A stretch of DNA of 46,191 nt, taken from an uncultured Rickettsiales bacterium (GTDB lineage: Bacteria > Pseudomonadota > Alphaproteobacteria > Rickettsiales > UBA1997). Position numbers and translations under genes: made by a program. The stretch lies in the NCBI GenBank assembly GCA_944391005.1, contig CALXSB010000118.1, forward strand, positions 1 to 46,191. The letters run 5' to 3'. The notes under the pieces are model-generated. The model was not told the DNA's origin, made no database searches, and worked only from the letters and a program-made list of their open reading frames with translations. Position 1 is the stretch's first letter; each line of letters starts with the position of its first letter. Below are positions 13,545-40,326 of the stretch, piece after piece.

Positions 13545-14873
13545 TTACTTTCCAATACAAAATTTAGAAAAAATATTATCTAAAATTTCTTCTGAATTAA
13601 TTTTACCAGTAATTTTACCAATACATTCAGCAGCCATTCTTATATTTTCTGCATTTATTTCAATAGGCAAAGAAAAATTAAACATTTGCAAGTAATTTAA
13701 GGCATTTATTAATTCGTGTCTATATCTTTCATTTGTTATTGTAGTGTCAAGATTTGGAGATACAATTGATTCTAATTTATTTTGTAGTTTTTTTATAAAT
13801 ATATCTAGATTTGTTTTATTTGTTAATGAAATTTCTATAATTTGATCACTTTTAAAATTAAATTCTTTTAAATTAATTTTCTTGTTGAGATCAATTTTAT
13901 TTAATAAAATTATTGTATTATCATCCACTAATTCTAATATTTTTTTGTTTATTTTTAGATTGTCAACTGATATAACTAATATTTTTAAATCGGCTATTTT
14001 TGCTTTTTCTATTGCTCTTTTTACACCCTCGTTTTCTATTATATCTTCAGTTTCTCTAATGCCAGCAGTGTCATATAAAATAACAGGTATTCCATTTATA
14101 TCAAGATTGACTTCTAAAACGTCTCTTGTTGTTCCAGCAATATTTGAAACTATAGCAACATCACGTTTTGATAAGTAATTTAAAAGTGTTGATTTTCCAG
14201 AGTTTGGCTCGCCAATTATTGCTATATGAAATCCGTCTCTTATTTTTTCACCAACTCTATTGTCATTTAGATTTTGATTTATTGTATTTATTATATTTTG
14301 TATTTTTTCATTTATTTCGTTTTCTAGATCTTGAGGAATTTCTTCTTCAGGAAAATCAATAAATGCTTCAATTATTGATAAAACTTCAACTATTTTTTCT
14401 CTTAAATGGTTATAAAAATTAGAGTTTTTACCCTGCAGCTGATTTATTGCTAGTTTATGTTGCAGTTCTGTTTCAGACCTTACTAAATCTGCTATTGATT
14501 CGGCTTGCATTAAATCAATTTTTCCATTTAGGAATGCTCTTTTTGAAAATTCACCGCGTTCAGCGAGTCTTACATTTTCCACTGATAATAATATTTTTAT
14601 TACTTTTGCTATTATATAGCTAGAACAATGCAAGTTTAATTCAACTATATCTTCTCCAGTAAAGCTATTTGGTCCCTTAAAATATATTACTAAAGCTTCA
14701 TCCAATGGTTGATTTTTATCATCTTTTAAAACACAGAGAGTTGCTTCTCTGTGTTTTAACTGTTTTGTTATACCAAGTTTTTTTATACACTCATTAACTT
14801 TTTTGCCGGAAATTCTTATAACATAAATACTACAATTTCCCTTTAAAGTTAATGGTGCAAAAATTGTATCCAT
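13545..14873 (-). CDS. mnmE: tRNA modification GTPase MnmE (TrmE)
   Basis: G1 motif GEPNSGKSTLLN, DTAGIR, NKIDL, and the diagnostic C-terminal FCIGK. Confidence 0.95.
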   Translation of the reverse strand: MDTIFAPLTLKGNCSIYVIRISGKKVNECIKKLGITKQLKHREATLCVLKDDKNQPLDEALVIYFKGPNSFTGEDIVELNLHCSSYIIAKVIKILLSVENVRLAERGEFSKRAFLNGKIDLMQAESIADLVRSETELQHKLAINQLQGKNSNFYNHLREKIVEVLSIIEAFIDFPEEEIPQDLENEINEKIQNIINTINQNLNDNRVGEKIRDGFHIAIIGEPNSGKSTLLNYLSKRDVAIVSNIAGTTRDVLEVNLDINGIPVILYDTAGIRETEDIIENEGVKRAIEKAKIADLKILVISVDNLKINKKILELVDDNTIILLNKIDLNKKINLKEFNFKSDQIIEISLTNKTNLDIFIKKLQNKLESIVSPNLDTTITNERYRHELINALNYLQMFNFSLPIEINAENIRMAAECIGKITGKINSEEILDNIFSKFCIGK

Positions 14874-14876
14874 TTA

Positions 14877-15533
14877 CTATTGATTCATTGTATTTTCTTG
14901 AACTTTTTGAGGTGTATTATTATTTATTTGTTGTTGAACCTGTTGTTGAACCTGTTGTTGAGTGTTTAAATTTGGCTGTGCTTGATTATTGTTTGTTATA
15001 ACTGGCTGTTCAACTGTTGTTTGAGTTTGATCTTGACTATTGTTATTATTTGTTGGATTTTGAACAGTATTATTTTGAGGATTCTGATTATTAGTATTCA
15101 TTTCTGTTGTTAAATTCATAGGTTCTACAGTATGAACCGAATTGTCCATGGCATCATTTGAAGTTGGCATTTGATCTTCTTCAATAAATACTCCGATTTC
15201 ATCATTTCCTATATTATCCATTGGTTCAATTACATTAATATCTTCAAAATCTGGATTATCAATATTTTTTACCTCATTTTTTTCTTCTTCTGTCAAAGGT
15301 CTATCTTCATGAGTTAAAGGTTGTCTTTCTTCCTCCATGTCGTGCCTGTCCATAACTCTATAAATCTCTTCTTTAGTGTCGTTAAAAGCTTTATCCATTT
15401 CGTCCTTTATTACGAGTTCATCATCATGTAAATTGCCAACATCTCCTTTAAAAGAACCGGAGAATTTAACACCTAATGCAAAGGCAAAAGCTATAATAAC
15501 AACAAATAATACAAATTTTAAAAACTTAATCAT
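14877..15533 (-). CDS. Membrane-anchored hypothetical protein with an acidic middle and a Gln/Asn-rich tail
   Basis: N-terminal TM helix (FVLFVVIIAFAFALGV), an acidic segment, then NQNPQNNTVQNPTNNNNSQDQTQ...QQQVQQQVQQQ. It lies 3 nt upstream of mnmE on the same strand. Confidence 0.55.
   Translation of the reverse strand: MIKFLKFVLFVVIIAFAFALGVKFSGSFKGDVGNLHDDELVIKDEMDKAFNDTKEEIYRVMDRHDMEEERQPLTHEDRPLTEEEKNEVKNIDNPDFEDINVIEPMDNIGNDEIGVFIEEDQMPTSNDAMDNSVHTVEPMNLTTEMNTNNQNPQNNTVQNPTNNNNSQDQTQTTVEQPVITNNNQAQPNLNTQQQVQQQVQQQINNNTPQKVQENTMNQ
14931..14962. repeat. 12-nt tandem repeat (ttgttgaacctg, about 2.6 copies) inside the Q/N-rich gene
   Basis: Direct reading gives 14931-14942 identical to 14943-14954, then a partial copy. 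It encodes QQVQQQVQQQ on the minus strand. Confidence 0.85.
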
Positions 15534-15785: not shown

Positions 15786-17048
15786 ATGAGCAATTTTAAG
15801 TCAAAATTTTTGCAGGAATGCGAAGCGAGAGGTTTTTTAAACCAATGCACTAATATTGAAGAATTGGACAAACAATTGTCTGAAGGTAAACCGGTTATAG
15901 CCTATTGGGGAACAGATCCAACAGGAGCTTCGTTGCACGTTGGCCATTTATTCTCTTTGATGATGATTAGACTTTTTCAAAAATGTGGAAATAAGCCAAT
16001 AATTCTAATAGGCGGTGCTACTGGACAAATTGGAGATCCAAGTGGAAAAGATAAATCTAGACCAATGATGAGCCTAGAAACTCTTAATAATAATAAAAAT
16101 GGCATTAAAAAATCTATTGAAAAATTTATAAAGTTTGGAGATGGAGAAACAGATGCAATATTGGTTGATAATTATGATTGGTGGAAAGACACTAATTATT
16201 TGAATTTGCTAAGAGAGATAGCACCACATATTTCTGTTAATAGAATGCTAACATTTGAATCTGTAAAACAAAGACTTGAAAAAGAAGACCACATGAGTTT
16301 TTTAGAATTTAACTATATGATTCTACAAAGTTATGACTTTTATCATCTATATAAAAACTATAATTGCACACTACAATTATGTGGTGGCGACCAATGGGGA
16401 AATGTTGTTGCAGGAGTTGAATTGGTTAGAAAATTACAGTTTGTAAAGGGTGATGTTGAAAAAGGCAAAAAGACAGAAGTTTTAGGTTTTTCAACTCCAC
16501 TATTGCTTGACGCAAATGGTAAAAAAGTTGGAAAATCAGAGGGTAATGCCATATGGATTAATGAAGATCTATTAAGTCCATACGAGTATTTTCAATATTT
16601 TAGAAATGTAAATGACAGAGATGTAATAAGATTTTTGAAAGTATATACAGATCTACCGACTGAAGAAATTAGCAAATTAGCGACACAGAACATAAACAAC
16701 ATAAATAATCTAAAAAAAATACTAGCCTTTGAAGCTACAAAATTATGCCATGGAGAAGAAAATGCTAAAAAAGCTATGGAGCAAGCTGAAAGTATTTTTG
16801 AAAATAATTCAATTGACAATTTGCCAAAACTTGAATACAAAATACAAAATGATGAAAAATCAATTTTTCAACTTTTAAAAAATTTAGAACTGGCACTATC
16901 CGGTGGTGAAGCAAAAAAATTAATTAGAGGCGGAGGTGTAAGGATTAACAATGAAAAGGTTGAAAATGAAAATCTTGACATATCTCAAATGAAAGAATTT
17001 AAATTGTCAGTTGGCAAGAAAAAGCATTTTTTAATAGTGATTAAATAG
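15786..17048 (+). CDS. tyrS: Tyrosine--tRNA ligase
   Basis: HIGH-type motif HVGHL, KMSKS-type motif KVGKS, and a C-terminal S4-like domain (GEAKKLIRGGGVRINNEKV). Confidence 0.95.
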   Translation: MSNFKSKFLQECEARGFLNQCTNIEELDKQLSEGKPVIAYWGTDPTGASLHVGHLFSLMMIRLFQKCGNKPIILIGGATGQIGDPSGKDKSRPMMSLETLNNNKNGIKKSIEKFIKFGDGETDAILVDNYDWWKDTNYLNLLREIAPHISVNRMLTFESVKQRLEKEDHMSFLEFNYMILQSYDFYHLYKNYNCTLQLCGGDQWGNVVAGVELVRKLQFVKGDVEKGKKTEVLGFSTPLLLDANGKKVGKSEGNAIWINEDLLSPYEYFQYFRNVNDRDVIRFLKVYTDLPTEEISKLATQNINNINNLKKILAFEATKLCHGEENAKKAMEQAESIFENNSIDNLPKLEYKIQNDEKSIFQLLKNLELALSGGEAKKLIRGGGVRINNEKVENENLDISQMKEFKLSVGKKKHFLIVIK

Positions 17049-17170: not shown

Positions 17171-18166
17171 ATGGACTCTGATAAAATATATCAATTATAC
17201 TATAAAGATAATAATCCAATACAGCCAATTAAGGGTTTTTGTGCTGCTGTAGAAAATGATTGCGTTATCAGAAAAGCTGCTGAGAAAATTGGAGTTGAAC
17301 CTGCCACAATTTCAAAGCAAATAAAGGCATTAGAAAGAAAACTTGGTGTTGAATTACTTGAAAATAAAGATAATTCTGATAGAAAGGGCAGTAAATTAAA
17401 ATTAACAAAAGAAGGTGAAAAATTTTATGAGAAAGCTAAACCTATAATGATTGAATTAGATAAGTTGTTTTTAGAATATTCTCATGAAATGAATGTTATA
17501 AATGAGTCTTCTCTTAATATTGCTACAACATCATTTATGGTGCAAAAATTAGTAGATTTTATATATCTTTTTAAGAAAACTATAAGCGATCCAGAATCTA
17601 AAAATATTAATATAATTGCAATAAATCAAGAAGATGGGATAAAGATGCTATTAGATAAAAAAATTGACATTTTTATTTCAAATAGAGAGGAAGCAGTAAA
17701 ATTACCATATAATGTTGAATTTATCAAATTAACAGAATATATACCATATTTAGTATTATATAAAGGACATCCATTGGGAAATGTTAAATCTGAAAATATA
17801 ACTGTTGATGATCTTATAAATAGTGGTTTGGGTTTTAATTATGAAGAAATAACAATAAATACGTTAAAGGGATTAATTGATGACTACAATATAAAAAGTA
17901 AAGTATTAATTACGACATCAACAAATAATTTAGAAATACAAAAAACTTTTATTAGAAATCAAATGTGTGTCTGTATTATATTTAATATATTTTTAAACAA
18001 AGAAGATAGTAAATATTTTATATTTAAAAATATGAAAAAGCTTTTATCAAGTGGCAGCTATGGATATTATGTTCTAAAAAATAATAAAAAAGTATTCTTA
18101 CAAAATTTTATAGACTTTATAAAAAAAGAAAAAAATGTTATATTTGATAATAGTTATCTAGAATGA
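17171..18166 (+). CDS. LysR-family transcriptional regulator (divergent)
   Basis: N-terminal wHTH segment FCAAVENDCVIRKAAEKIGVEPATISKQIKALERKLGVELLE...LKLTKEGEKFYEKAKPI, followed by a substrate-binding-like domain of about 200 aa. Confidence 0.7.
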   Translation: MDSDKIYQLYYKDNNPIQPIKGFCAAVENDCVIRKAAEKIGVEPATISKQIKALERKLGVELLENKDNSDRKGSKLKLTKEGEKFYEKAKPIMIELDKLFLEYSHEMNVINESSLNIATTSFMVQKLVDFIYLFKKTISDPESKNINIIAINQEDGIKMLLDKKIDIFISNREEAVKLPYNVEFIKLTEYIPYLVLYKGHPLGNVKSENITVDDLINSGLGFNYEEITINTLKGLIDDYNIKSKVLITTSTNNLEIQKTFIRNQMCVCIIFNIFLNKEDSKYFIFKNMKKLLSSGSYGYYVLKNNKKVFLQNFIDFIKKEKNVIFDNSYLE

Positions 18167-19077
18167 AAATCTTTTTCTTTTATAGTTACTTGAATATATT
18201 GTCTAATTTCATTTAAATTGTTTAATACATACTCATTTAATTCTTTATTATTTTTTACATTTTTACCATTGTATATAATACAATGCAATGGTGTATTACT
18301 GTGGTAATATATATCGCAATTATTATTTAAAGACATTCTTATAGCAACGGGAATTGTTTCGTCAAATAAATATTTTTTACTTTGTTGTATAAATAAATCT
18401 TTAAAATCTATAACCTCACCTCTTCTTAATAGTCTATTACAAAATGTGTTTGCTTCAAAGTCATAACATCTGTTAATTAAACCATCGGATATTTTCATAG
18501 CAACTTTTAATTTGTTTTCTATATCTTTATATTTTGGATTATTATAGTAATGATTATAGGACATATATTCAAGTTTCGGCATTAAATCTGTTTCTTCAAA
18601 TATGGTTGTAATATCGTTATTAGTTTTAAAACTATCATCTATTTTCTTGTCATTAGAAAAAGAATTAATTCCATCTATATTTTTTAAAAGCCACTCTTTA
18701 CTTTCCTCTAAGCCATCTTGATATGATATATTATCAAACTCTTTTCTTATCTCTAATGGTATTAATTCTTCTTTGTCTATGTTGTGTTTTTTAAAATATT
18801 CAGCACAATGATTATAATAAAAAACATGACGTCTTAATGTATCACCAACCATTAATGTTAATTTATTAACTTTAAATTCTTTATCTTTATATTTTATAAT
18901 TTTACCCTTAAGAAGCTTTTGCAAATCGCTTATAATCATTTTAAAATTATCACCCATATAATAACTGTTTCCAAGGCTTATAAGTAATGTTAAAGTGATA
19001 TTATCAATATTGTTTTTATAGAATCCCTCCAATACTTCAGATAAATTTAAATAATTATAGTATAGTTTATTATCCAT
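18154..19077 (-). CDS. Candidate tRNA-dependent cyclodipeptide synthase (CDPS, NYH subfamily)
   Basis: Four motifs are collinear with AlbC-type CDPS. I-S34-L-G-N37-S-Y-Y corresponds to AlbC GISAGNSYF. MVGDT corresponds to YVDTH. Y236-LFD-E240 corresponds to Y178-x3-E182. Y258-H259-SN-TP corresponds to Y202-H203-ID-TP. The comparison is from memory and needs an HMM check. Confidence 0.55.
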   Translation of the reverse strand: MDNKLYYNYLNLSEVLEGFYKNNIDNITLTLLISLGNSYYMGDNFKMIISDLQKLLKGKIIKYKDKEFKVNKLTLMVGDTLRRHVFYYNHCAEYFKKHNIDKEELIPLEIRKEFDNISYQDGLEESKEWLLKNIDGINSFSNDKKIDDSFKTNNDITTIFEETDLMPKLEYMSYNHYYNNPKYKDIENKLKVAMKISDGLINRCYDFEANTFCNRLLRRGEVIDFKDLFIQQSKKYLFDETIPVAIRMSLNNNCDIYYHSNTPLHCIIYNGKNVKNNKELNEYVLNNLNEIRQYIQVTIKEKDFHSR

Positions 19078-19127
19078 TTTCTTTAAAAGTTTTTAATTTA
19101 ATAAATATTTATTCACACAATAAAAAT

Positions 19128-19156
19128 ATTATATGACATATTTAATAAAATTACAA
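19128..19156 (-). promoter_or_regulatory. Candidate sigma70 promoter for the CDPS-like gene
   Basis: On the minus strand: TTGTAA (19156-19151), 17-nt spacer, perfect TATAAT (19133-19128), about 50 nt before the ATG at 19077. Confidence 0.35.
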
Positions 19157-19259
19157 GCTATTTATTTTTATATAATTAATTATATAAAAATACTGCTTAT
19201 AATTAAAATTCATTTATATTATAAATTATAAACAATATTTTTATTTTTTCAATACAAAA

Positions 19260-20792
19260 CTATAAAGGTAAATTATCGTGCTTTTTTCTTGGCAATCCAA
19301 CTTTTTTATTTCTTAAAAACCTTAAAGAATCACAAATTCTTTTTCTAGTGTTTTGTGGGTGTATAATTTCGTCAATATAACCTCTTGATGCTGCATAGAA
19401 TGGAGTTGAAAATTGTTCTTTATATTCTTCAATTTTTTCTTCCCTATCCTTTCCCTCTAGATTTTTATAAATAATATTTATTGCTCCTTCTGCACCCATA
19501 ACTGCAATCTCTGCATTACTCCATGAATAGTTTATATCGCTTCTTAAATGCTTTGAATTCATAACTATATAAGCACCACCGTAAGCTTTTCTAGTAATAA
19601 CACTGATTTTTGGAACAGAAGATTCTGCATAAGCGTATAATAATTTTGCACCGTGATTAATAACTCCATTGTGTTCTTGATATTTACCTGGCAAAAATCC
19701 TGGGACATCAACAAGAGTAATTAAAGGTATATTAAATGCATCGCAAAATCTTATAAATCTTGCTCCTTTTCTTGAAGAATTTATATCTAAACTACCTGCT
19801 GCTTCTAATGGTTGGTTGGCAACTATACCAACAGTCCTGCCTTCCATTCTTGCAAATCCAACAACTATATTTTTTGCAAAATTTGGCTTTATTTCAAAAA
19901 AATCTCCCTCATCTACAATTTTATATATTAGTTCTTTAATATCATAGGCTTGACTTGGATTTTCAGGAACTAATGTATTTAATGAAGTATCAACTCTTTC
20001 AGCATCATCTTCTGTTTGTAAATATGGAGGTTGTTCTTCATTACTCAATGGTAAAAAGTTAAATAATCTTCTAATCTGCAATAGAGTTTCAATATCGTTG
20101 GAGTAAGAATTGTCAGCAACACCACTTATTTCAGTATGAACTTCTGCACCGCCTAATTCCTCTTTAGTTAATTCCTCATGAGTAACAGTTTTTACAACGT
20201 CTGGTCCAGTTAAAAACATATATGAATTATTGTCAACCATAAATGTAAAGTCAGTTAGTGCAGGAGCATAAACAGCACCACCAGCACATGGTCCCATAAT
20301 AACAGAAATTTGAGGTATGACACCTGAAGCATCAACTATTCTTTGAAAGATTCTACCAAAACCGCCAAGTGCATCAACACCTTCTTGTATTCTAGCACCA
20401 CCAGAATCATATAATCCAATTACAGGAGCTTTAGATTTCATGGCCATAGATATTATTTTTTCAATTTTTCTAGCATGTGCCTCTCCTAAAGATCCTCCGC
20501 TAACAGTAAAATCTTGTGCAAATACAAATACCATTCTTCCATTAATAGTGCCAGAACCTGTAACAACACCATCGCCAGGATATTTTTTTTCCTGCATGTT
20601 GAAATTGATACATCTATGTTCCATAAATATTCCAAATTCTTCAAAAGATCCATTGTCTAATAAAACTTCTATTCTTTCTCTAGCGGTTAATTTTCCTTGT
20701 TTATGTTGTTTTGCTATTTTTTCAGCTCCACCGCCCAAAAGAGCCTCTTCTCTTTTTTGATTAAATTTAACGTAATTCGTATTATTTAACAT
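19260..20792 (-). CDS. pccB: Propionyl-CoA carboxylase beta chain / acyl-CoA carboxyltransferase
   Basis: 510 aa and collinear with the PccB/MMCoA carboxyltransferase family throughout: [48 protein letters not shown]...[15 protein letters not shown]. Confidence 0.9.
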
Positions 20793-20972: not shown

Positions 20973-22217
20973 CTATACTATTTTTGCCCCATTAAACATA
21001 TTTGTTATATTTTGTATTAGATCATCATTTGATGTATTTTGTTGAATATTTGTTTCTTCATCCTGTAATTGTGAATTTTGATTTTTTAAAATATCATCAA
21101 GACTAGGTAATCTGCTGCCATAACAAACGTTTATAATTATTATATCCATAATTTTTTTTGCATCAAAATTATTTCTAAGTTCATTTTCTCCTTTTAAAAG
21201 AATTTTCCAAATCCTCATTAAAGAACTAAGGTTAATTTTGTCAATAGTGTTTTTTATAATATCAACTTGATCCGTTGGCAAATGGGCTGTTTCAAAAAAG
21301 TTTGTTAAAGTTTTTGCCATTATCATATTATGATTTACGTTTAATAGATCCTGCATTAGTGCATTGATATCTAGAGAATAGGAGTATATATTTTCAAACT
21401 GCTGCAATGCCTTCTCAGAATCTCCTTCCAGCATGCTTAAGAATAAATCATATATATTTTTTTTACTGCTTAAACCTAGCATTTCTGATACAGTTTTTTC
21501 TGTTAAAACTTTTTCATAATTGTTATAACTTAGTGCTCTATCTAGTAATGATAGAGAATCTCTAACAGATCCTTCTGCAAAGCTTGACAATACAGACAAA
21601 GCTCCATCCTCAACCTCATAACCTTCTTTTTGGCATATATTCGCTATATGGGATTTAACCTCGTCAAAACTAAGTCGTCTTAAATCAAACCTTTGACATC
21701 TTGATAAAATTGTAATTGGAACTTTTCTAATTTCTGTTGTAGCAAAAATAAATTTTATATAGGATGGTGGTTCTTCCAATGTTTTTAACAGTGCATTAAA
21801 AGCACTTTTTGAAAGCATATGAACTTCATCTATTATAAATATTTTATATCTTGAATTAACCGGTCCATAGGCAGTGCTTTCTATTATTTGTCTAATATCA
21901 TCAACACCTGTATGGCTGGCAGCATCAAACTCTATAACATCTTGATCGCTAGAGTTTGCAATTGCCTTGCAATGTTCGCATTCTCCGCATGCATCAATAG
22001 TTGCACCATCGCTATGGGAACAATTTAGAGATTTAGCAATTAATCTTGCTGTTGTTGTTTTTCCAATACCTCTTATGCCTGTTAATATAAAGGCATGATG
22101 AATTTTATTGTTTTTAATTTCATTTGATAAAGTTTGAACTAGTGCTGGCTGTCCAACTAATTCCGAAAATTTCTGAGGCCTATATTTTCTTGCTAAAACT
22201 TGATATTGTTTTTCCAT
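20973..22217 (-). CDS. dnaX: DNA polymerase III subunit gamma/tau (short, 414 aa)
   Basis: YRPQKFSELVGQ, Walker A GIRGIGKTTTARL, Zn module CGECEHC, DEVHML, SRCQRF. Confidence 0.92.
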   Translation of the reverse strand: MEKQYQVLARKYRPQKFSELVGQPALVQTLSNEIKNNKIHHAFILTGIRGIGKTTTARLIAKSLNCSHSDGATIDACGECEHCKAIANSSDQDVIEFDAASHTGVDDIRQIIESTAYGPVNSRYKIFIIDEVHMLSKSAFNALLKTLEEPPSYIKFIFATTEIRKVPITILSRCQRFDLRRLSFDEVKSHIANICQKEGYEVEDGALSVLSSFAEGSVRDSLSLLDRALSYNNYEKVLTEKTVSEMLGLSSKKNIYDLFLSMLEGDSEKALQQFENIYSYSLDINALMQDLLNVNHNMIMAKTLTNFFETAHLPTDQVDIIKNTIDKINLSSLMRIWKILLKGENELRNNFDAKKIMDIIIINVCYGSRLPSLDDILKNQNSQLQDEETNIQQNTSNDDLIQNITNMFNGAKIV

Positions 22218-22451
22218 TTTATTATTAATTTTTTATACAAGAATAATATAGTAATATTTTTTTTAAAATCAAATTAAAAACTAATAATTTTTAACTACTT
22301 TAATTGTATTTTTGATTAAAGTAATAATTAAAAATAACCATTGGTATTTTTTATAACTAATTACAATAAAAAAATCATAAAATTGATTTTTTTCTTGATT
22401 TTAGTTTTATTAAGAATAATAATATTAATATATAATATATTATATAGAGTT

Positions 22452-22751
22452 ATGGCAGGTGGAAGAATTGATAATGATCCTTTATTTTTAGGACTTACAA
22501 GACCAAGTATGATATTAGGTGTTACCTATGTATTTGCTGGTATGAATGCTCTTGCTTCTCTTATGTTATTTGTTATGACAAGTAATTTCGTTTATCTATT
22601 AGTAGTGTTGCCAACATTACACGGTATAGCATATTTGATATGTTTAAAGGAACCTTTAACACTAGAGATGATTATAATGAAAACAAGTAATTTTATGAAA
22701 TGCAAGAATAAAACTTTTTATGATGGCACGAACTCTTATGATGTTTATTAA
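22452..22751 (+). CDS. virB3: Type IV secretion system protein VirB3
   Basis: Start trimmed to MAGGRIDNDPLFLGLTRPSMILGV (VirB3 LFxGLTRP motif), followed by two TM helices. About 99 aa, directly upstream of virB4. Confidence 0.85.
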   Translation: MAGGRIDNDPLFLGLTRPSMILGVTYVFAGMNALASLMLFVMTSNFVYLLVVLPTLHGIAYLICLKEPLTLEMIIMKTSNFMKCKNKTFYDGTNSYDVY

Positions 22752-22768
22752 ATGGGTTTATATATATT

Positions 22769-25162
22769 ATGATGAAGCTTAGTATTACGCAACCGCCAAA
22801 AGAAAAATATTTTAAATGGGAGACATCAGAGTCTATCTATATCCCATATAAAAGCTTTTGGAATTCTAATACTGTATTGCTTAAAGATAATTCAATGTTG
22901 AGAGTTATAAAAGTTAGAGGATTTTCTTTTGAAACTGCAGATGATGAAGATATTGATATAAAAAAACAAGCTAGAAATAATTTAATGAAAGGTATGTCGT
23001 CAGGTAATTTGGCGATGTGGTTTCATACTATTAGAAGAAGAAGAGAGGCATTTCCAGAAGGTGAAATGTCAAATGTATTCACAAAAAAAGTTAATGATGA
23101 ATGGAGACAGAGACATGATGGTAATAGATGTTTTATAAATGAACATTACATTACGATTATAAGAAAAGAAGACAAGGGTGGTTTAGCTACTATAGCAGCG
23201 TTAGCAAAAAAATTAAGAAACAAGGCTGATTCTGCTGCTGCAGGACGTGATATGAAGGAAAGTTTTAGCGAACTAGAAGAATTGACAGGCAGAGTTTTAA
23301 ACGGTTTATCAAACTATGTTCCAGACCTATTGGATATTAAAGAAACAAATAATGGAATATTCTCTGAAGTTTGTTCTTTTCTTGGATCAATTGTAAATTG
23401 TGGTTATACGCAAAATTATAGATTTATTCCTTATGGGCTTGATAAATATTTGCCAATTAATAAACTATATTTTGGTTCAAAGAATTTTGAAGTGAGATTC
23501 CCATTTGAAACAAAGTATGGTGGAATGGTTTCACTTAAAGAATATAGATCTGCTACTAACGCCGGAATGTTGGATGGATTTTTACAATTACCTTTTGAAT
23601 TTATTATTGCACAGTCATTTCAATTTGTTAATAGAATGATTGCCATTTCAAGTATGCAATTGCAACAGAGAAGAATGATTCAGGCAGAGGATGTTGCTGT
23701 ATCACAGATACAAGAAATTGATGAAGCTTTAGACGCCGCCATGAGTGGAACATTTGCTTTTGGAAAGCATCATTTGACTGTTATGTGTCTTGATGATAGT
23801 ATAAAAAGTGTTGAAAATGCTTTATCAATGGTTATAGTTGAGTTGTCAAATGTTGGTATAATGGCAGTTAGAGAAAAAATTAATATGGAGGCAGCTTTTT
23901 GGTGCCAATTACCAGGTAATTTTAATTATATAGTTAGGGCAGCAACAATTAATACATTAAATTTAGCAAGCTTTGCATCGTTCCATAATTATCCGTCAGG
24001 AAAAATAAAAAATAATCATTGGGGACCTGCTGTTACTGTTTTGAATACGGTATCCGGAACTCCATACTTTTTTAGTTTTCATGTTAGAGACGTTGGACAT
24101 ACAATGATAATTGGTCCTACTGGTGGTGGTAAAACTGTTACAATGAACTTTCTTTGTGCACAATCTCAAAAATTCAATTGTAGAATGTTCTTTTTTGATA
24201 AAGATAGAGGTGCGGAAATATTCATTAGGGCTTTAGGTGGTAAATATTCAATAATTGATTCAAGTAAGGTTTCAGGATTTAATCCACTGGCATTACCGGA
24301 AACAAGTGAAAATAAAGCATTTTTGAATGAATGGTTGAGAGCTTTAGTTACGGTTAATGGAGAACAAATAACTGCAACAGATATAGCTATTATAAATGAA
24401 GCTGTCAATGGTAATTACAAGCTTCCACCAAATAAAAGAATTTTAAGAAATATAGCACCATTTTTAGGAATGTCCGGTCCTGGAACATTAGCAGGGCGTC
24501 TTGAAATGTGGCATTCTGATGGTTCTCACGCCAAACTATTTGATAATGAAAAAGATGTTATTGACTTTTTTTCTGCCAAGGCGTTTGGTTTTGAAATGGC
24601 GGAAGTATTAAAGGACAAAGTTAGTATTGGACCAGTGCTTTTGTATTTATTTCACAGAATTAATAGCTCTCTTGATGGAACTCCAACAATGATTATTCTT
24701 GATGAAGCATGGGCTTTAATTGATAATCCAATATTTGCACCAAAAATTAAAGATTGGCTAAAGGTTTTGAGAAAATTAAATGCTTTTGTGGTATTTGCTA
24801 CACAATCCGTTGAAGATGCTACTAAATCTAGTATTTCTGATACTTTAGTTCAACAGACTGCAACACAAATATATCTGCCAAATTTAAGAGCGACGGAAGT
24901 TTACAAAACGGCTTTTATGTTGTCAGAAAGAGAATTTCAGCTTGTAAAAACTACAGATCCGGGAACTAGATATTTTTTGATAAAGCAGGATAACGGTGGC
25001 GTTATTGCAAGAGTTGATTTATCAGGTATGACTGATGTTATAAATGTATTATCTGGAAGAGCGGAAACTGTCTTATTATTGGATGATATAATTAGAGAGA
25101 TTGGAAGTGATAAGCCAGAAGATTGGTTGCCTATTTTTTATAAAAGAGTGAGGAAAATATGA
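22769..25162 (+). CDS. virB4: Type IV secretion system ATPase VirB4
   Basis: 797 aa. Walker A GPTGGGKT, Walker B MIILDEAW, FATQS. The CagE/TrbE/VirB4 layout holds throughout. Confidence 0.95.
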   Translation: MMKLSITQPPKEKYFKWETSESIYIPYKSFWNSNTVLLKDNSMLRVIKVRGFSFETADDEDIDIKKQARNNLMKGMSSGNLAMWFHTIRRRREAFPEGEMSNVFTKKVNDEWRQRHDGNRCFINEHYITIIRKEDKGGLATIAALAKKLRNKADSAAAGRDMKESFSELEELTGRVLNGLSNYVPDLLDIKETNNGIFSEVCSFLGSIVNCGYTQNYRFIPYGLDKYLPINKLYFGSKNFEVRFPFETKYGGMVSLKEYRSATNAGMLDGFLQLPFEFIIAQSFQFVNRMIAISSMQLQQRRMIQAEDVAVSQIQEIDEALDAAMSGTFAFGKHHLTVMCLDDSIKSVENALSMVIVELSNVGIMAVREKINMEAAFWCQLPGNFNYIVRAATINTLNLASFASFHNYPSGKIKNNHWGPAVTVLNTVSGTPYFFSFHVRDVGHTMIIGPTGGGKTVTMNFLCAQSQKFNCRMFFFDKDRGAEIFIRALGGKYSIIDSSKVSGFNPLALPETSENKAFLNEWLRALVTVNGEQITATDIAIINEAVNGNYKLPPNKRILRNIAPFLGMSGPGTLAGRLEMWHSDGSHAKLFDNEKDVIDFFSAKAFGFEMAEVLKDKVSIGPVLLYLFHRINSSLDGTPTMIILDEAWALIDNPIFAPKIKDWLKVLRKLNAFVVFATQSVEDATKSSISDTLVQQTATQIYLPNLRATEVYKTAFMLSEREFQLVKTTDPGTRYFLIKQDNGGVIARVDLSGMTDVINVLSGRAETVLLLDDIIREIGSDKPEDWLPIFYKRVRKI

Positions 25163-28146
25163 TATTTAAAAAAACCCTTAAAGATATTATAACTATTTTT
25201 ATTATAAGCACAACTCTTACAACGGCTTGTTTTGAAAGTGCTTTTGCATTATCTGACCGAACTAAAGAAACGCGATATTCTGTTACCACAAGAGATGATG
25301 GTGTAAAAATTTTTGAAAGTTCTATTGGTGGGTTAAATATTTTACCTTATCTTTCAGAAACTTCTGGTGGAGATTTATCTGTTGAGCTATCTAATCCATA
25401 TTGTTTGTCATATACAGCAATATATGCTATCGTTATGTATGCTGGAAATTGGGCTGTTAGATTGACTGCCACTGGAATTCTTCTTAATATGGCGGTAATA
25501 ATATATGGTATTGCAGCTTCAAAATTTAATAAATATGAAATTTGCGGAGCTGATTGGCTAAATTGGGGAAGCAATGAAGATGTAGATGCCACAGCCTTAT
25601 CCAATATTAAAAGGTATTATCCCTCTAAAGGTGCGTTTGGCGGATCTAGAAAATTTAGAGTTCAAGAATGTGTTAGCGATATTAGCAAATGCACTTCTGA
25701 TTTAGTTGATAAAAGTTTTATTAGTAAGAGCGGAAGAACAAGATTAAATATAAATGATAAAGCCTATAGAGAAAGAATATATGATGGTGAAGAGGTTGCT
25801 AATACAAATTGTAGAGATCCTCGTGAAGAAGCTAAAGGATATGATGTAAATCAAGATTTAGTTGCAAGAGGTGAGACGCCATATCAATTGTATTATATGA
25901 GAGGGTTTGAGAAAGGAAATTATGCCTGCGACAGATTTTTAGTTGGCAAGCAAGAAGAAGGTGATGAATTTGATCAAGCTTATGATTGCTGTGTTGAAGC
26001 AAGTAGAAGCGTATGCATAAGGCAAAAGACAGGCTTGCTTAGTGATGTAAAATTTTGTTCAATTGATGAAAAAATATGTGATTTTAATGGCGTTGAGATT
26101 GAAATTTTTGCTGGTGAAGATGGAACAAACGATAAATATTGTGCTAGAACCTATAGTCTTTGTCCATATAATTTTAATTTTCAACACGGAACTGAAAAAA
26201 AATTATCTTTCGATTCAAGTGCTACAACTGATGGAAGCGATGGAGTAACAGTAGAAAACGAATGCTATGATGCATCTAATGATGAAACGCTTTCTTGTCA
26301 AGGAAGAATAAAGAATTTTTACCAATACAATAGACATTGCACTATGGTTGAAGAATACGTTGAAGTTCCAGAAGACATAAATGAATCATATCCTCCATAT
26401 GTTGATAAATCATGTATAAACTTTGTTGGCAGTTCACATAATCATATTGACGGCGATTATAAAAGCTATAATGGTTATGATAAAATGTTTAAGACCTACA
26501 ATTCATTTACAGCACCTATTGCTGAATGTTTAACAGAAACATTGAAGAATTTTTTATTTAATAAGGCTGGCCATACTATATGTCAAAAGGAAGGAGAAAG
26601 ACCGAATAGTGAAGAGACGTGTCCAGGTGGTGTTTATGTAACAAAAGGTGATGATTTATTTAAAGTTCAGAGTATATCTTCTCCAACTATGACACTATTA
26701 TCTCGTATTCATACATTAATAATGTTGACTTTGGTATTAATGATAACAATATATGGATTCAATCTTTTAACTAATGTAGATAAATTTCATAGAAGAGACA
26801 TGGTTATAATGTTATTAAAAGTTGTTATTGTTGTTGCTTTTTCAGCTGATGATTGGTGGTATAAACAGATATTTCAATTTACATATGGATTCTCAAATAC
26901 ACTTTCTACAATAACTGGTAAGTTTGGTTTTGATGACACAAAGAGTGCAAAGAAAGAAAGTAGCGACACAGGAGATTCTTTGTTAGGAAGCGATGAGGAA
27001 TATATAAAATATGATGGATGTTATTTTGGAGATCCGCAAAATTTATTAACAGATGAAAATACGACTATATATTTATCAAATAATTATTCGGCATATCCAG
27101 TAGATAGAAGGTATGTCGCATTTTTTGATACGCTTGATTGTAAAATTAATAAATATTTAGGAGTTGGTATGGGTCTAGATGCACCTAATATAATGATGAT
27201 GTTAGGTATATCTCTTATATGGCCGTTTAATATTGGTATCTATTTAGCTGTTGCTACTTTATTATTAGCATTCTTTGCAATTAATTTTGCAATAAAGGCT
27301 GTTTATATATTTGTGGTTTCATCAGTAGCAATGGCCTTGATGCTATATCTAGCCCCAATAATGATACCTTGTATTTTATTCAGAAGAACACATAAAATAT
27401 TCCAAAATTGGCTAAAAAATTTAATAAGTTTTGCTCTGCAACCAATGGTTTTATTCCTATTCGTTGGAATGGCAATTACTGTTATGGATAAATATACTTT
27501 AGGTGATGGTTTATTTGTAGGAAGTGGTATGAATAAAGAATTAGTATGTGGATATGCTTGTATAAGTGATGCTGGAACAGTTATTGATTATACAAACTCT
27601 AGGGGTAGCAGTGTTCTTACGGAATTTACAGAAACTTGTACTAGTGGCGAAGAAAATCAAATACTTGATTTAAAAAGAAATAGTGTATTGTGTTTCTTAA
27701 ATAATATGACAAGCAGTCCTTGGGCATTACTACAGGCATTTGGAATTTTTATTCCAATTCTTAAGGATATATTTTTATCGGATGTTTTAAGCTTTTTAAG
27801 AGTAGCATTTTTGTTCTTTATACTGACACAGGTTCTGAATACTATACCTGGTATTGCTGCAAACTTAACTGGTGGTAAAGAATTGCCTGGAACTAAGGCT
27901 GGAGATCCATTTGAACTCTATAAAAAAGCTGTTGATATTACAAAAGCTCTTTCAAGAGGATTTAAAGGTGCCGTTTCTAAATATGGTGGCGGCTTTACAA
28001 AATGGGGATATGATAAAATTAATAAGTTAAAAGATTACGTTAGTGAAAATAATGAAGCTAAAGAAAGAGCTGAGAAAAGAGGTAATGGCCCTCAAGGAAA
28101 TGGTGGCGATGTTGGCGTTGAAAAAACTGAACAAAAAACAAATTAA
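25159..28146 (+). CDS. virB6: Expanded VirB6/TrbL-family T4SS channel protein (paralogue 1, 995 aa)
   Basis: ATGA overlap with the virB4 stop. Signal peptide and a Cys-rich N-domain. The polytopic core APIMIPCILFRRTHKIFQNWLKNLISFALQPMVLFLF matches the A. tumefaciens VirB6 region PLILVGYIFDRTRDIAAKWIGQLITYGLL. Confidence 0.75.
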   Translation: MIFKKTLKDIITIFIISTTLTTACFESAFALSDRTKETRYSVTTRDDGVKIFESSIGGLNILPYLSETSGGDLSVELSNPYCLSYTAIYAIVMYAGNWAVRLTATGILLNMAVIIYGIAASKFNKYEICGADWLNWGSNEDVDATALSNIKRYYPSKGAFGGSRKFRVQECVSDISKCTSDLVDKSFISKSGRTRLNINDKAYRERIYDGEEVANTNCRDPREEAKGYDVNQDLVARGETPYQLYYMRGFEKGNYACDRFLVGKQEEGDEFDQAYDCCVEASRSVCIRQKTGLLSDVKFCSIDEKICDFNGVEIEIFAGEDGTNDKYCARTYSLCPYNFNFQHGTEKKLSFDSSATTDGSDGVTVENECYDASNDETLSCQGRIKNFYQYNRHCTMVEEYVEVPEDINESYPPYVDKSCINFVGSSHNHIDGDYKSYNGYDKMFKTYNSFTAPIAECLTETLKNFLFNKAGHTICQKEGERPNSEETCPGGVYVTKGDDLFKVQSISSPTMTLLSRIHTLIMLTLVLMITIYGFNLLTNVDKFHRRDMVIMLLKVVIVVAFSADDWWYKQIFQFTYGFSNTLSTITGKFGFDDTKSAKKESSDTGDSLLGSDEEYIKYDGCYFGDPQNLLTDENTTIYLSNNYSAYPVDRRYVAFFDTLDCKINKYLGVGMGLDAPNIMMMLGISLIWPFNIGIYLAVATLLLAFFAINFAIKAVYIFVVSSVAMALMLYLAPIMIPCILFRRTHKIFQNWLKNLISFALQPMVLFLFVGMAITVMDKYTLGDGLFVGSGMNKELVCGYACISDAGTVIDYTNSRGSSVLTEFTETCTSGEENQILDLKRNSVLCFLNNMTSSPWALLQAFGIFIPILKDIFLSDVLSFLRVAFLFFILTQVLNTIPGIAANLTGGKELPGTKAGDPFELYKKAVDITKALSRGFKGAVSKYGGGFTKWGYDKINKLKDYVSENNEAKERAEKRGNGPQGNGGDVGVEKTEQKTN

Positions 28147-28157
28147 AGGAGAGTAAA

Positions 28158-31100
28158 ATGATTATATTGCAAAATAAAAGAATACTAAAAGAAATTAAGG
28201 ATTATTGTTCAATATTTTTATTTTTTGTCCTTATTTGTATAATGTTTTCTGGTAATATGGCGTTTGGTGCGGCCACTTGCACTGCGTTTGATACTTCAAG
28301 TAGCAATTATTATAATGATAGAATGAATAGATGTAAGTCGCAAACATTAGTTCCATCAATTTCAGAAAACACTTCAACTGAGACTTTGAATGGATATAAA
28401 GATTTTGATAATAATATCCCTATAACTTGTGATATAAGTAATATTGAATTTGAATTTAATCCAGATAGTTCCACAAGTGATTATCAATACAACAACAAAC
28501 GTAAAGCATGTTTAGCTATAGCTTTAACATTTCAAAGCGTTTCAGCAGCATCATTTACAACAGCAGGCTATATATGTTCGGAACCCAGCACAATAAGCAA
28601 AGCTAATAAAGTAATATCTACTATTTCTAAAGTAATAGATACTCTATCAGCTATTGCTGATGTTGTTACAACCACCCTTTCTGCTACTTTAACATCATAC
28701 GTAATTGATCCAAGAATAAGTTTTCATACTGAGTTAGCCATTTCTGCAGGAACTTTAGCTGGTACAGCTATTGCAAGGCTTATTTCTACAGCCGGCATGG
28801 ATGGAGCTGCATGGACTTGTTTAGGAACGGCTGTAGGTCTTGTTGCTGTCTTGGAGGGCACATATTATGCTTCTTTAGGAGGACAGTTTGAAACTGCAAA
28901 AAAACAACTACGCAAAGTTAATGTTTGTGGTAATGATTGGTATTCCTATGCTTATACAGAGTATGATATGCAGAGGCCAATAAGAGAATGGTATCCTCAA
29001 CATGGATCGTTTTCAAATTCCTATAGTTATAAACTTAATAAAATAATTTCTAAAGAATATAATTGCGAAGGCTTTTTAGATAACTTAAATGGCGGCGGAG
29101 ATAGTAGTGAAATTAAAGTATCATCGGAAGCTTCAGCATGTAATGAAAGCGTTTGTAAAGCAGAAATTAAACAATGTTTAAGCGAAACAACAACCGCAAT
29201 TGATACAAATGGAAGAGCATTTACTAAAACAAAATCACTATCTGAATGTATTGAAGAAAGCAGTAAGAGCTGTAATTCATATTGTAGAAAATATATTGCT
29301 TCATGCAAGCCAATGATCTCTGCTTTAGATGGAGATGGTATTTGTGATGGTAATGAAGAATTTTGTAAAGATATAAAATCTTATAGTAAAAATTTAAAAA
29401 ATAGATTTTATAGAGAAACTTTATATAAAGGAAAAGAATTTAAGATAACAAAGGAATATAGAGGAAATAAAGATTATTGTTTTGATCCAAGATTGCCAGA
29501 ATCAAAAGGATTTAATGGATTAGAACAAAGGTATTATTTTAGAGGAAAAGAAGCTGCACAATATGCCTGCAATAGGTTTGTATATAGTGGGGGGGGATGC
29601 GTGCTAGGAGATGGAACTGTAATTACAAAAGATGATCTTACTGTGGCTGGTAATATTACACAGGAAATTGCTGATAGTAATGATGCAAAATGTGCTCAAG
29701 CGTTTGAACAGGCTAAAACATGCTGTCAAAATAGAGCAACTCTTGGTATTTGCGTATATGATGAAAGTGCTAATAATAGAAATAATAATACAATGTGCTT
29801 AAGAAGTGCTGATTCTGAAGAAACTGATGAAACATGCACATTAGATACAGAAGGAGGAACGAATCCAAAGTTTATAGCATTTCAGAGTCCAGAAAACAGC
29901 AGTGATACCTGTATAAAAACCATAGGTTATTGTCCATATGATTTCAATGTTGCTGGAGGAACTGTATTAGAAGAACAGTATTGCAACGGAGATTATACAA
30001 GTAGAACATCATGTGGTGATGATTATTATAAAATATGGAAAAAGGGTTCATTTAGAGAACCAACAATGTATTATGGACAGACTAAAAACTTCTGTTTTTA
30101 TAGAGCTCATTGCACAGAAATGGGAACAAGCGATTATGAATTTGCTGATATAACCTCAAGTAGATATTTACCAAAAGTTTGTTCAGACTTTATTGGCGAT
30201 TCACAAAATTTACCTGTGCCTTTTAGCATTATTGATTTAAATGGCACTAAGGACGAGTCAAAAAAATTAGTTGCCGGCGTAGACTTTAGTCTAGGAGAAT
30301 ATAGGGGATTTACTGCACCAATAGCACAATGTATAAGGGAAACTGTATATAATATGTTTAATAATGTAGCCGGACAAAGCTCCTGTAAAGATGGTTCTGA
30401 ACCTAATGATGATGGGTATTGTGGTGAAGATACAGCTGATAGCATCAGAAAAACAAAAATTTGTTCTAAGAATCAGGGAAAATTTTGTACTGATGATGAA
30501 AGTGTATGCGGAGTAAATGACGGTCAATGCGAGTATTTATATTATAATTATATAATGGGTGAAAAATTACCTGACGGTGATAATATATTTTATACTATTC
30601 AATCTAGACTGCAATTAATTATTAAATTGGCTGCCGTTATCGCTATTATAGTAATTGGAATTAATTTTCTTTTAAGAGGCGAAATGGCAATATTTGATGA
30701 TATCAGAAAGCCAAAGTTAATTATTGTTGGAATGTTAAAATTCGCAATAGTATTTTATTTTGCGGTTGGAGAAGCATGGCAGACATATTTTTATAAATGG
30801 ATTGATGCTTCAACTCAATATTTATATTATAAAGCTTTTGATTTATCTTTATTAGATTATAAAGACTATAAAAATCAGGCCGAGGTTAGTGTTTGTGATA
30901 TAACGACAAATACAGAGACCTGTGAACAAATATCATCATTAAAAGATAATGGAGAAATTTGTAAAGACTTCTCCTATACCGGCGGCGAACAGTCTTTTAC
31001 AGTTCCAGATAATGTTGAAAGTATTAAATTAGAGGTTTGGGGTGCACAAGGTGGAAATGGAAAATATTCTACAGGTGGTTTAGGTGGTTATTCTACTGGT

Positions 31101-37577: not shown

Positions 37578-40326
<2,749 letters not shown>

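Follow-up and report, generated by a model that had tools for sequence, protein, structure and literature searches.

A divergent cyclodipeptide synthase-like protein family with a conserved LysR-type partner in uncultured Rickettsiales

The window analyzed here is a stretch of 46,191 nucleotides (contig CALXSB010000118.1, assembly GCA_944391005.1) from an uncultured Rickettsiales bacterium (UBA1997). It contains 2 convergent genes: an open reading frame (ORF) of 307 amino acids with an ATG start on the minus strand (18154-19077), and a gene for a LysR-type regulator of 331 amino acids on the plus strand (17171-18166). The 3' ends of the 2 genes overlap by 13 nucleotides (18154-18166, both strands). 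An earlier interpretation made from the DNA letters, here referred to as the sequence-only reading, had proposed that the ORF encodes a candidate tRNA-dependent cyclodipeptide synthase (CDPS) located tail-to-tail with the LysR gene. The ORF and its start were confirmed, as was the overlap, and the core of the proposal was supported by the predicted fold, the catalytic residues and a profile-profile match. The identification, which had been reached from motifs alone, is right in substance.

The 307-amino acid protein had no match in Pfam, NCBIfam, the PDB sequences (phmmer), PADLOC or PHROGs. Weak matches to PqqC (E 0.059) and eIF2B-gamma (E about 1) were dismissed as noise, and the one homologue deposited at NCBI was labelled as a hypothetical protein of a Rickettsiales bacterium. 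A word-indexed search identified 26 homologues with 43% to 81% sequence identity, which form the alignment called A1, and a profile of these gave no match to the PDB sequences (hmmsearch). The sequence-only reading had suggested a search with the hidden Markov models of the CDPS family as a check, and taken literally this check failed, in that neither PF16715 nor the NCBIfam CDPS models matched the protein at E <= 10. PF16715 was touched by 1 of the 26 homologues, at E 0.23. CDPSs are split into the NYH and XYP types; SYQ, at one time put forward as a third group, has since been absorbed into XYP (PMC5816076). Since even P0066, a bona fide XYP CDPS, scored no more than 22.7 bits in the curated family model, where the cut-off is 27, this model is insensitive on the XYP branch. 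The failure is a matter of sensitivity, because the profile of the family does reach XYP CDPSs and the profile-profile comparison returned a probability of 98.6%.

A single-sequence AlphaFold model was unusable (predicted local distance difference test score, pLDDT, of 41), whereas an AlphaFold2 model built with the alignment of the 26 homologues had a pLDDT of 93.7 and a predicted template modelling score of 0.90. In a Foldseek search of the latter model against the PDB, ranks 1 to 42, all with E <= 1e-3, were occupied exclusively by CDPSs. The best match was Fdum-CDPS (5ocd, E 4e-9, target-normalised template modelling score 0.75), and the XYP enzymes came first, with 5ocd followed by Nbra-CDPS, Rgry-CDPS and SsBcmA (E 4e-9 to 1e-6). 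These were followed by the NYH enzymes BtCDPS, YvmC, Shae-CDPS, AlbC and Rv2275, with E-values of 1e-4 to 6e-4 for AlbC, Rv2275 and YvmC. After the CDPSs, the E-value leapt from 6e-4 to 0.15, and tryptophanyl-tRNA synthetase (TrpRS) was found at 0.5. The occupation of all top ranks by CDPSs together with this leap shows that the predicted fold is specifically that of CDPSs rather than a generic Rossmann fold. In the model, the protein is thus predicted to adopt the CDPS fold, with a Rossmann-type domain related to the catalytic domains of class Ic aminoacyl-tRNA synthetases (aaRS), which is the outcome that the sequence-only reading had anticipated for its structural check.

When 1.84 billion cluster representatives were searched exhaustively with the family profile (hmmsearch), just 42 proteins were retrieved, which makes this a tiny family. 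The weakest 2 of these matches, P0066 (E 3e-4) and P0068 (E 9e-4), were ordinary XYP CDPSs of 223 to 248 amino acids. P0068 matched Fdum-CDPS at E 2e-36 and Nbra-CDPS at 8e-24, and P0066 matched Nbra-CDPS at 1.5e-20. The family alignment A1 was also compared with hhalign to an alignment of 22 XYP CDPSs (A3), several of which are named "tRNA-dependent cyclodipeptide synthase" by their sources, and matched it with a probability of 98.6% (E 1.3e-15) over 191 columns. Intermediate sequences were identified as well. P0052 and P0055 contained the Tyr-Pro motif and one large insertion, while P0041, P0045, P0046, P0107 and P0108 contained more of the insertions in graded subsets. As judged from these profile comparisons, the family has statistically significant remote homology to bona fide CDPSs.

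The sequence-only reading had placed the protein in the NYH subfamily with AlbC, and this was not borne out, since the family was nearest to the XYP branch. An AlbC-type assignment was rejected because the hhalign comparison of A1 with an AlbC-type NYH alignment gave no match (probability 0.08), because Asn37 was present in 2 of the 26 members, and because the position equivalent to His203 of AlbC was occupied by Tyr, Phe or Trp. A search with AlbC, in a sequence identical to 3oqv over residues 2 to 239, recovered only close relatives in Streptomyces and Nocardiopsis and no bridge to the family. XYP enzymes are recognised by a Tyr followed by a Pro; since the family does not conform to this, we place it nearest to XYP yet without the XYP signature. 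We regard it as a new, previously unannotated CDPS subfamily. Some latitude in the signature is on record, in that SsBcmA is counted as XYP despite an Asn at the X position (PMC11580168).

Residue conservation was scored in a MAFFT alignment of 70 sequences (50 family and intermediate sequences, 20 XYP sequences), to which Nbra-CDPS and Fdum-CDPS were added, with equivalences to Nbra-CDPS taken from the alignment rather than from superposition, and with counts for A1 given out of 26. The motifs cited in the sequence-only reading were located at the expected residues (I33-S34-L-G-N37-S-Y39-Y40, V77-G78-D79-T80, Y236-L-F-D-E240 and Y257-Y258-H259-S-N-T-P263), and they go beyond a chance resemblance, since their key columns were invariant in the family and aligned with the catalytic residues of solved CDPSs. 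Ser34 (codon 18976-18978, minus strand, as are all codons below), the predicted acyl-enzyme nucleophile that corresponds to S37 in AlbC and S34 in Nbra-CDPS, was invariant in 70/70 sequences; the catalytic Ser of Nbra-CDPS has been changed to Ala in 9iam (PMC13062777). The Tyr236-x3-Glu240 motif (18358-18372; Y178/E182 in AlbC, Y172/E176 in Nbra-CDPS) was almost equally well conserved, with Glu in 70/70 and Tyr in 69/70 sequences, the sole exception being a canonical XYP sequence with a Phe (19 of the 20 XYP sequences keep the Tyr). Tyr257, which together with Tyr258 is encoded at 18304-18309 and corresponds to the cyclisation Tyr (Y202 in AlbC, Y194 in Nbra-CDPS), was also invariant (70/70).

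The residues that contact the 3' end of the tRNA in Nbra-CDPS were also retained. Tyr39 (18961-18963; Nbra Y39) was present in all 26 members of A1, and Phe212, Arg215 and Arg219 (18421-18444; Nbra F149, R152 and R156) in 26, 25 and 25 members, respectively, while Ser233 was found in all 26 at the position equivalent to Nbra C169. In Nbra-CDPS, Y39 stacks on C74/C75 of the tRNA, F149 stacks on A76, and R152 and R156 form salt bridges to the A76 phosphate (PMC13062777), while C169 binds the A76 base (PMC13062777, PMC11580168). The retention of these contacts argues that the CCA end of an aminoacyl-tRNA is still the substrate, and we infer aminoacyl-tRNA use from it. No HIGH or KMSKS motif was found in the 307-amino acid protein.

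The residues that distinguish the CDPS types were more variable. Position 258 was Tyr in 24 of the 26 members, with 1 Ser and 1 Phe, it was Phe, Tyr or Trp in the wider family, and it was Pro in 20/20 XYP sequences; outside these, the Pro is retained by the intermediates P0052 and P0055 alone. The sequence-only reading had aligned Y258-H259 with Y202-H203 of AlbC, which is one residue out of register, in that the invariant Tyr is Y257 and H259 is variable. Its assignment of N37 as the NYH Asn did not hold either, since the X position (37) was Lys in 24 of the 26 members, the two with Asn being the window protein and its closest relative. The apparent "N...YH" signature is therefore a coincidence of one sequence. 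The Leu found in place of a Gly 2 residues before the Ser, to which the sequence-only reading had drawn attention, is no anomaly, since Nbra-CDPS also has a Leu (L32) and other XYP enzymes mostly have Pro or Gln. Predictions of the substrate from the pocket are unreliable for XYP enzymes, even for the canonical ones (PMC5816076).

An insert of roughly 60 amino acids between the Ser motif and the Y-x3-E motif had also been proposed, and the length was correct, in that the spacing from Ser34 to Tyr236 is 202 residues as compared to 141 in AlbC, about 61 more; it is made up of 3 insertions, not one. Insertion 1 (residues 55-68, 18874-18915, minus strand) is a beta-hairpin extension that was gapped in at least 80% of the XYP sequences, and strands were modelled in this region at residues 60-63 and 66-77. 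Insertion 2 (residues about 88-115, 18733-18816, minus strand) is helical and located in the region of helix alpha4 and connective polypeptide 1 (CP1), with helices modelled at residues 80-98 and 108-132; it was absent from P0052, P0055 and the canonical XYP CDPSs. Insertion 3 (residues 142-166, 18580-18654, minus strand) is an extra beta-hairpin with an invariant ITT.FEET motif and a modelled strand at residues 156-160; it was present in P0052 and P0055 and absent from the canonical XYP CDPSs. All 3 insertions are located after the Ser strand and before the strand that precedes the Y-x3-E helix. This places them around helix alpha4, the helix that is turned towards the tRNA in canonical CDPSs.

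The neighboring gene product matched HTH_1 with an E-value of 4e-11 (43.1 bits, cut-off 26.6), and the full-length models of the LysR-type transcriptional regulators (LTTRs) CysB, HcaR and GltC covered residues 25 to 320. PF03466 was not called on the window copy and was called on the orthologues at the loci L003, L005 and L009. As judged from these models, the gene at 17171-18166 encodes a LysR-type regulator with an HTH_1 domain and a substrate-binding domain. At each of the 11 other distinct loci that could be read by tblastn and ORF analysis, the CDPS-like gene has a gene for a LysR homologue downstream of it, encoded on the opposite strand. The readable loci were L001/L011, L003, L004 (partial), L005-8, L009/L012, L013, L014, L015, L016, L018, L019 and L020, whereas L002, L010, L017 and L021 end too near the gene for the partner to be judged. 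The LysR gene was directly adjacent everywhere except at L019, where a radical-SAM-like ORF (L019:2415-3245, with a CNFNCIYC motif) is located between the LysR gene and a frameshifted CDPS-like gene. The pairing holds even for CDPS-like paralogues with 31% to 35% identity to the window protein, and the other flanking genes vary between loci.

The CDPS-like and LysR proteins were found to co-diverge (Pearson r 0.85, Mantel p 2e-4, ten complete pairs), and both separated into the same 2 clades. In the metagenome-assembled genome (MAG) DATIQT01, the source of L015, L016 and L019, the 2 CDPS-like proteins at L015 and L016 were 76% identical and the 2 LysR proteins were 68% identical, and these pairs have evidently been duplicated as units. 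The junction is usually compact, with overlaps of 4 nucleotides at L001, 17 at L005 and 7 at L016, and gaps of 3 to 5 nucleotides at L013 and L018. No terminator-like sites were predicted at the junction in the window. Our literature search recovered no paper that links CDPSs and LysR regulators as gene pairs or that describes the CDPS-like family.

No gene for a tailoring enzyme adjoins the ORF in the window, as had been claimed, the neighbors being pccB and the LysR gene, and none was consistently present across the loci. It was noted that L005/L008 contain a pair of radical SAM and SPASM genes 5 kb upstream (L005:1087-2408); these and the radical SAM gene at L019 may represent an occasional tailoring function. 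On the LysR side of the pair, a gene for an aaRS was found one or two genes away in 3 contexts, namely tyrS in the window, aspS at L005 (10139-11956) and cysS at L009 (3801-5147). The proximity of tyrS, 2 genes away, had been pointed out before and its position is correct, yet it carries no weight. A neighboring aaRS gene was considered as a hint to the substrate and dropped, since none was found near the pair at L001 and L003 (Pfam annotation) or at L013-L018 (ORF inspection only). Its occurrence in 3 contexts and not in the other 8 is probably due to chance in small genomes.

The intergenic region upstream of the CDPS-like gene (19078-19259, minus strand) contains promoter-like sites. The near-consensus promoter of the sequence-only reading, TTGTAA-17-TATAAT, does exist (19156-19128, minus strand, 10/12 matches), and TTGAAA-16-TATAAT (19252-19225, minus strand, 11/12 matches) is a better match 70 nucleotides farther upstream. 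However, the stretch scanned has a GC content of 22%, and the 34 promoter-like sites found were not clearly above the 25.7 +/- 4.7 expected from shuffled sequences, so the site carries no weight. It was also unaligned by MAFFT with the orthologous intergenic region at L001. A search for a shared LTTR-box-like inverted repeat upstream of 13 family genes gave a best dyad at 4 loci, equal to the 95th percentile of the shuffles.

In the fetched loci, the exact 12-mer CTAGCATTATTT was found only 75 to 95 nucleotides upstream of clade-2 CDPS-like genes, in three MAGs: at L014:188-199 and 1690-1701, before each of the tandem copies, at L016:5861-5872 and at L017:2903-2914. The 12-mer overlaps a -35-like position. 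The upstream region in the window contains a similar element, AGCAGTATTTTTATATAAT (19197-19179, minus strand, 102-120 nucleotides upstream of the gene). This likeness is only a lead, because the pattern used to find it had been drawn up in part from the window itself. We consider CTAGCATTATTT and AGCAGTATTTTTATATAAT to be a candidate promoter or operator element.

A scan of the GTDB species genomes identified 11 loci, with labels that correspond to Rickettsiales MAGs (7), Alphaproteobacteria (1), Rhizobiaceae (2) and Gammaproteobacteria (1). In 3 of these MAGs the gene was present in two or three copies, most of which were accompanied by a LysR gene. A comparison with the orthologue at L001 (80% identical) gave a ratio of nonsynonymous to synonymous substitutions (dN/dS) of 0.107 for the CDPS-like gene of the window, 0.087 for the LysR gene and 0.016 for pccB, with dS near saturation. 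These values indicate that both genes of the pair are under purifying selection.

Several copies were disrupted. L014 contains a tandem CDPS-like duplicate (272-997 and 1774-2718), of which the first copy is truncated or frameshifted, and frameshifted or degraded copies were also found at L019:547-1472, L020:390-986 and L021:6001-6810, the last in a MAG labelled as Gammaproteobacteria. Gene turnover is ongoing in the CDPS-like family. Human gut metagenomes (Hadza, Nepal) are among the samples in which family members occur, which points to endosymbionts of gut protists. The homologue P0028 is 934 amino acids long and consists of a CDPS-like domain (residues 1-320) followed by about 600 amino acids that are rich in Lys, Asn, Glu and Ile, of low complexity and without a Pfam match; this tail may be effector-like or serve in scaffolding.

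The remainder of the window has a GC content of 20% to 30% outside the rRNA genes. On one side of the pair are mnmE (13545-14873) and tyrS (15786-17048), separated by an ORF of 218 amino acids (14877-15533, minus strand) without a Pfam match, which encodes a hydrophobic N-terminal segment and a low-complexity tail rich in Gln, Asn and Thr. The other side contains a pccB-like carboxyltransferase gene (19260-20792), dnaX (20973-22217) and a block with virB3, virB4 and several virB6 genes (22341-33710), followed further downstream by ksgA, thrS and the 23S and 5S rRNA genes. The virB block is an rvh-type type IV secretion system (T4SS) with very large VirB6-like ORFs (995 and 1850 amino acids), and it confirms that the genome is T4SS-bearing, with the genes from 22341 onwards located 3 kb from the ORF. 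The 23S-5S rRNA pair (37579-40554) has no adjoining 16S gene, as is typical of Rickettsiales. A CDPS had been described as unexpected in such a reduced genome, which was not upheld, since CDPSs of intracellular bacteria are already known: structures from Rickettsiella grylli, Fluoribacter dumoffii and Ca. Glomeribacter were among the PDB matches found by Foldseek, and predicted CDPSs are on record for 'Ca. Megaira' (PMC10132079).

We propose, with a probability of roughly 0.7, that the protein is an active, highly divergent CDPS of a new subfamily that produces an untailored diketopiperazine by the standard ping-pong mechanism, and that the LysR protein is dedicated to it as a regulator or sensor. 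This builds on the observed fold of the model, the homology, the conservation of residues, the purifying selection and the conserved, co-diverging adjacency of the LysR gene, and from these we infer the formation of a cyclodipeptide, the nature of this product and a regulatory link to LysR. The product is probably an unmodified cyclodipeptide, since the surroundings of the gene contain no consistent tailoring gene. On the model of AlbC and Nbra-CDPS, as homologous enzymes, a first aminoacyl-tRNA would dock by its CCA end, with A76 stacked between Phe212 and Tyr236, with the A76 phosphate held by Arg215 and Arg219 and with Tyr39 stacked on C74/C75. The aminoacyl group would then be passed to Ser34, a second aminoacyl-tRNA would give rise to a dipeptidyl-Ser34 intermediate, and Tyr257, with Glu240 and Tyr236, would aid the cyclisation to a 2,5-diketopiperazine. 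The LysR gene is an obligate partner, and its most likely role is either to control how the synthase gene is expressed or to sense what the synthase makes.

Several observations weigh against this proposal. The curated CDPS models do not match the protein, and hhalign finds no relationship to the AlbC-type alignment. After the cyclisation Tyr, the protein has neither the Pro of XYP enzymes nor the His of NYH enzymes. The register at this position differs by one residue between methods, in that hhalign places Y258 opposite the Tyr and Y257 opposite a gap; we prefer Y257 as the equivalent on account of its invariance, given that two members have Ser or Phe at position 258, and a Tyr is present at the cyclisation position under either register. 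Furthermore, the Gln of the XYP motif DTLQRH (Nbra Q69), invariant in XYP enzymes, is replaced by Asn in the family and by Arg82 in the window protein, and Nbra N72 by Met in the family and by Val85 in the window protein. Q69 and N72 bind the amine and carbonyl of the aminoacyl group in Nbra-CDPS. The 3 insertions near the tRNA-binding face could alter the substrate or the chemistry. The regulatory part of the proposal is touched by the convergent orientation of the LysR gene, which is not the divergent one of the classical LTTR arrangement, and by the promoters of clade 1, in which no shared operator was found.

As an alternative, a protein of CDPS fold could use aminoacyl-tRNA for another chemistry, with the insertions and the changed residue after Tyr257 redirecting the second half-reaction so that a linear dipeptide is released or the aminoacyl group on Ser34 is transferred to another acceptor. 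The aromatic residue at the hallmark Pro/His position, the unconserved equivalents of Nbra Q69 and N72 (R82 and V85 here, Asn and Met in the family), the location of the insertions in the region equivalent to CP1 and alpha4, and family scores below every curated CDPS model would all fit such a change. We nevertheless consider it rather unlikely, since Tyr257 and the Y-x3-E motif are invariant, which would be unexpected if the first half-reaction alone were kept, since SsBcmA, an XYP enzyme with Asn at the X position, shows that the signature tolerates variation (PMC11580168), and since no candidate gene that could provide an acceptor is conserved nearby. If catalysis had been lost altogether, the protein would be a CDPS-fold partner of LysR that binds tRNA or a ligand, for example as an anti-activator. 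The strict adjacency and co-divergence of the LysR gene and the extreme divergence from active CDPSs agree with this, but the catalytic and A76-binding residues are invariant or nearly so in about 50 members under purifying selection, and pseudoenzymes normally lose such residues, which makes a dead enzyme very improbable.

The site of action could also differ. A protein with CDPS chemistry might be a T4SS substrate that acts in the eukaryotic host on the aminoacyl-tRNAs of the host, either by making a host-directed diketopiperazine or by draining the tRNA pool. The rvh-type T4SS is encoded 3 kb away, the family is largely confined to Rickettsiales-like MAGs, and the low-complexity C-terminal tail of 600 amino acids in P0028 is effector-like. 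However, a strictly co-inherited and co-evolving cytoplasmic transcription factor fits a circuit inside the bacterium better; moreover, no secretion signal was recognised in the protein with the tools used, and T4SS genes were unlinked to the pair at other loci, so that we regard an exported enzyme as unlikely. The most extreme alternative, that an AT-rich, lineage-specific ORF unrelated to CDPSs has acquired the motifs by chance, could draw on the lack of matches in Pfam, NCBIfam, the PDB sequences, PADLOC and PHROGs and on the uninformative single-sequence AlphaFold2 model. It is effectively refuted by the specificity of the Foldseek matches, the hhalign probability of 98.6%, the bridge through P0066 and P0068 and the invariant catalytic columns, and its probability is close to negligible.

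An active CDPS of a new subfamily with a dedicated LysR partner therefore remains our preferred reading, and a further step may tentatively be considered. The CDPS-like and LysR genes could be a dedicated synthase/receptor pair in which LysR is the cytoplasmic receptor of the untailored diketopiperazine and in which the paralogous pairs serve as orthogonal channels; we regard this as possible, with the odds against it. Since the late 1990s there has been debate over whether diketopiperazines act as true signals of bacteria and have dedicated receptors, and we know of no clean synthase-receptor gene pair so far on which diketopiperazine signalling could be tested. If true, the pair would be the first autoinducer-type system with a CDPS to be defined genetically, and also the first in obligate intracellular bacteria, which might use it to gauge their density in the vacuole or cytoplasm of the host, or to sense the host itself. 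The 2 genes total about 2 kb and are amenable to heterologous expression.

The kind of enzyme is known; what is new is the enzyme subfamily and a previously undescribed conserved regulatory partner. The family would represent a real third signature type among CDPSs, X-Tyr-aromatic, with 3 insertions near the tRNA-binding face. Since the Pfam and NCBIfam models that are standard in genome mining miss it entirely, the diversity of CDPSs in uncultured host-associated bacteria is probably undercounted.

Sensor and regulator genes were also observed next to XYP CDPSs that are the nearest canonical relatives of the family. P0116 is encoded in a cluster (L027:1665-6613) that contains genes for a PQ-loop membrane protein, the XYP CDPS, a PAS hybrid histidine kinase, an HTH_3 protein and two response regulators, and that adjoins insertion sequence transposase genes. 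The theme is that of P0120 (L028:5001-6788), with the genes separate: in P0120, an XYP CDPS domain (ISVGQNVHEG, DTLQRH, YLLEECAV, VYPS) is fused to PAS-HisKA-HATPase, and its gene is preceded by an 86-amino acid PQ-loop gene and followed by a response regulator gene. Similar fusions were found in seven related clusters (P0122-P0126, P0132 and P0133), with 550 to 595 amino acids for the group including P0120, and the fusion of a CDPS to a histidine kinase points to cyclodipeptide signalling. The presence of PAS domains near CDPSs has been noted previously, and quorum sensing was suggested (Skinnider et al. 2018, PMC5767969). The LysR pairing and the CDPS-histidine kinase fusions of the nearest canonical relatives together suggest that this branch is tied to signalling, not to biosynthesis of the antibiotic type.

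Other arrangements were observed as well. The canonical XYP CDPS P0109 (L025:3346-4672) is encoded in a conventional-looking cluster with a gene for a flavin adenine dinucleotide (FAD) monooxygenase on an island flanked by an integrase gene, and it is preceded by an overlapping ORF of equal length (223 amino acids) without a Pfam match, which may be a second, divergent tandem CDPS. The genes for the intermediates P0045 (L023:1644-3250) and P0108 (L024:90-1744) overlap by 4 nucleotides with an upstream ORF of about 220 amino acids, which is not the LysR pairing. The upstream ORF at L024 matched XRE/HTH_3, whereas its counterpart at L023 had no Pfam match, and the CDPS-like gene there has a separate HTH_3 gene downstream of it. 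L024 is flanked by genes for large serine recombinases and may be mobile.

When compared to known enzymes, the protein most resembles the XYP CDPSs (Nbra 5MLQ/9IAM, Fdum 5OCD, Rgry 5MLP, SsBcmA 9J61), which gave the best structural matches and the only significant profile matches. It shares with them the Ser in an I-S-[VL] strand, the D-T-L-x-R-H and G-x-x-W-x-x-N motifs, the F-x-x-R-x-x-x-R motif that binds A76, Y-L-x-[ED]-E and the cyclisation Tyr, and several XYP CDPSs likewise come from intracellular bacteria. It differs from them in having Tyr, Phe or Trp instead of the Pro after this Tyr, Asn or Arg instead of the Gln of DTLQRH, and 3 insertions of about 60 amino acids in all, which bring the length to 307 amino acids as compared to about 225 to 250. 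It is also invisible to PF16715 and NCBIfam, and its genomic partner is a LysR regulator, not tailoring enzymes. The NYH CDPSs (AlbC 3OQV, Rv2275 2X9Q, YvmC 3OQH) have the same overall fold and four catalytic residues, and the window protein happens to share the Asn at the position equivalent to N40 in NYH enzymes, but there is no profile-level similarity, the consensus at position 37 is Lys and the equivalent of H203 is Tyr258.

With respect to gene organization, the PAS-linked loci of P0116 and P0120 resemble the pair in that an untailored CDPS is placed beside a sensor or regulator, which suggests a cyclodipeptide signal. Those loci rely on PAS and membrane histidine kinases, response regulators and PQ-loop proteins, whereas the pair has a cytoplasmic, convergently encoded LysR protein and no transporter gene. 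The Bacillus pulcherrimin locus, with yvmC-cypX and the MarR-type regulator YvmB/PchR, is another case of a CDPS with a dedicated adjacent transcription factor, but it combines an NYH enzyme with a MarR regulator, a P450 tailoring enzyme and a transporter, where the pair has an XYP-like enzyme and a LysR regulator. The autoinducer synthase and receptor genes of the EsaI/EsaR-type LuxI/LuxR pairs are convergent and overlap at their 3' ends, and PqsR is a signal receptor of the LysR type. Like EsaI/EsaR, the system described here consists of a synthase and a transcription factor encoded by 2 genes that are convergent, often overlapping and co-diverging, and one genome can contain several paralogous pairs. 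The protein families and the chemistry are unrelated, so that the likeness is one of architecture only, in which the binding of a cyclodipeptide by LysR is the hypothetical counterpart of autoinducer recognition.

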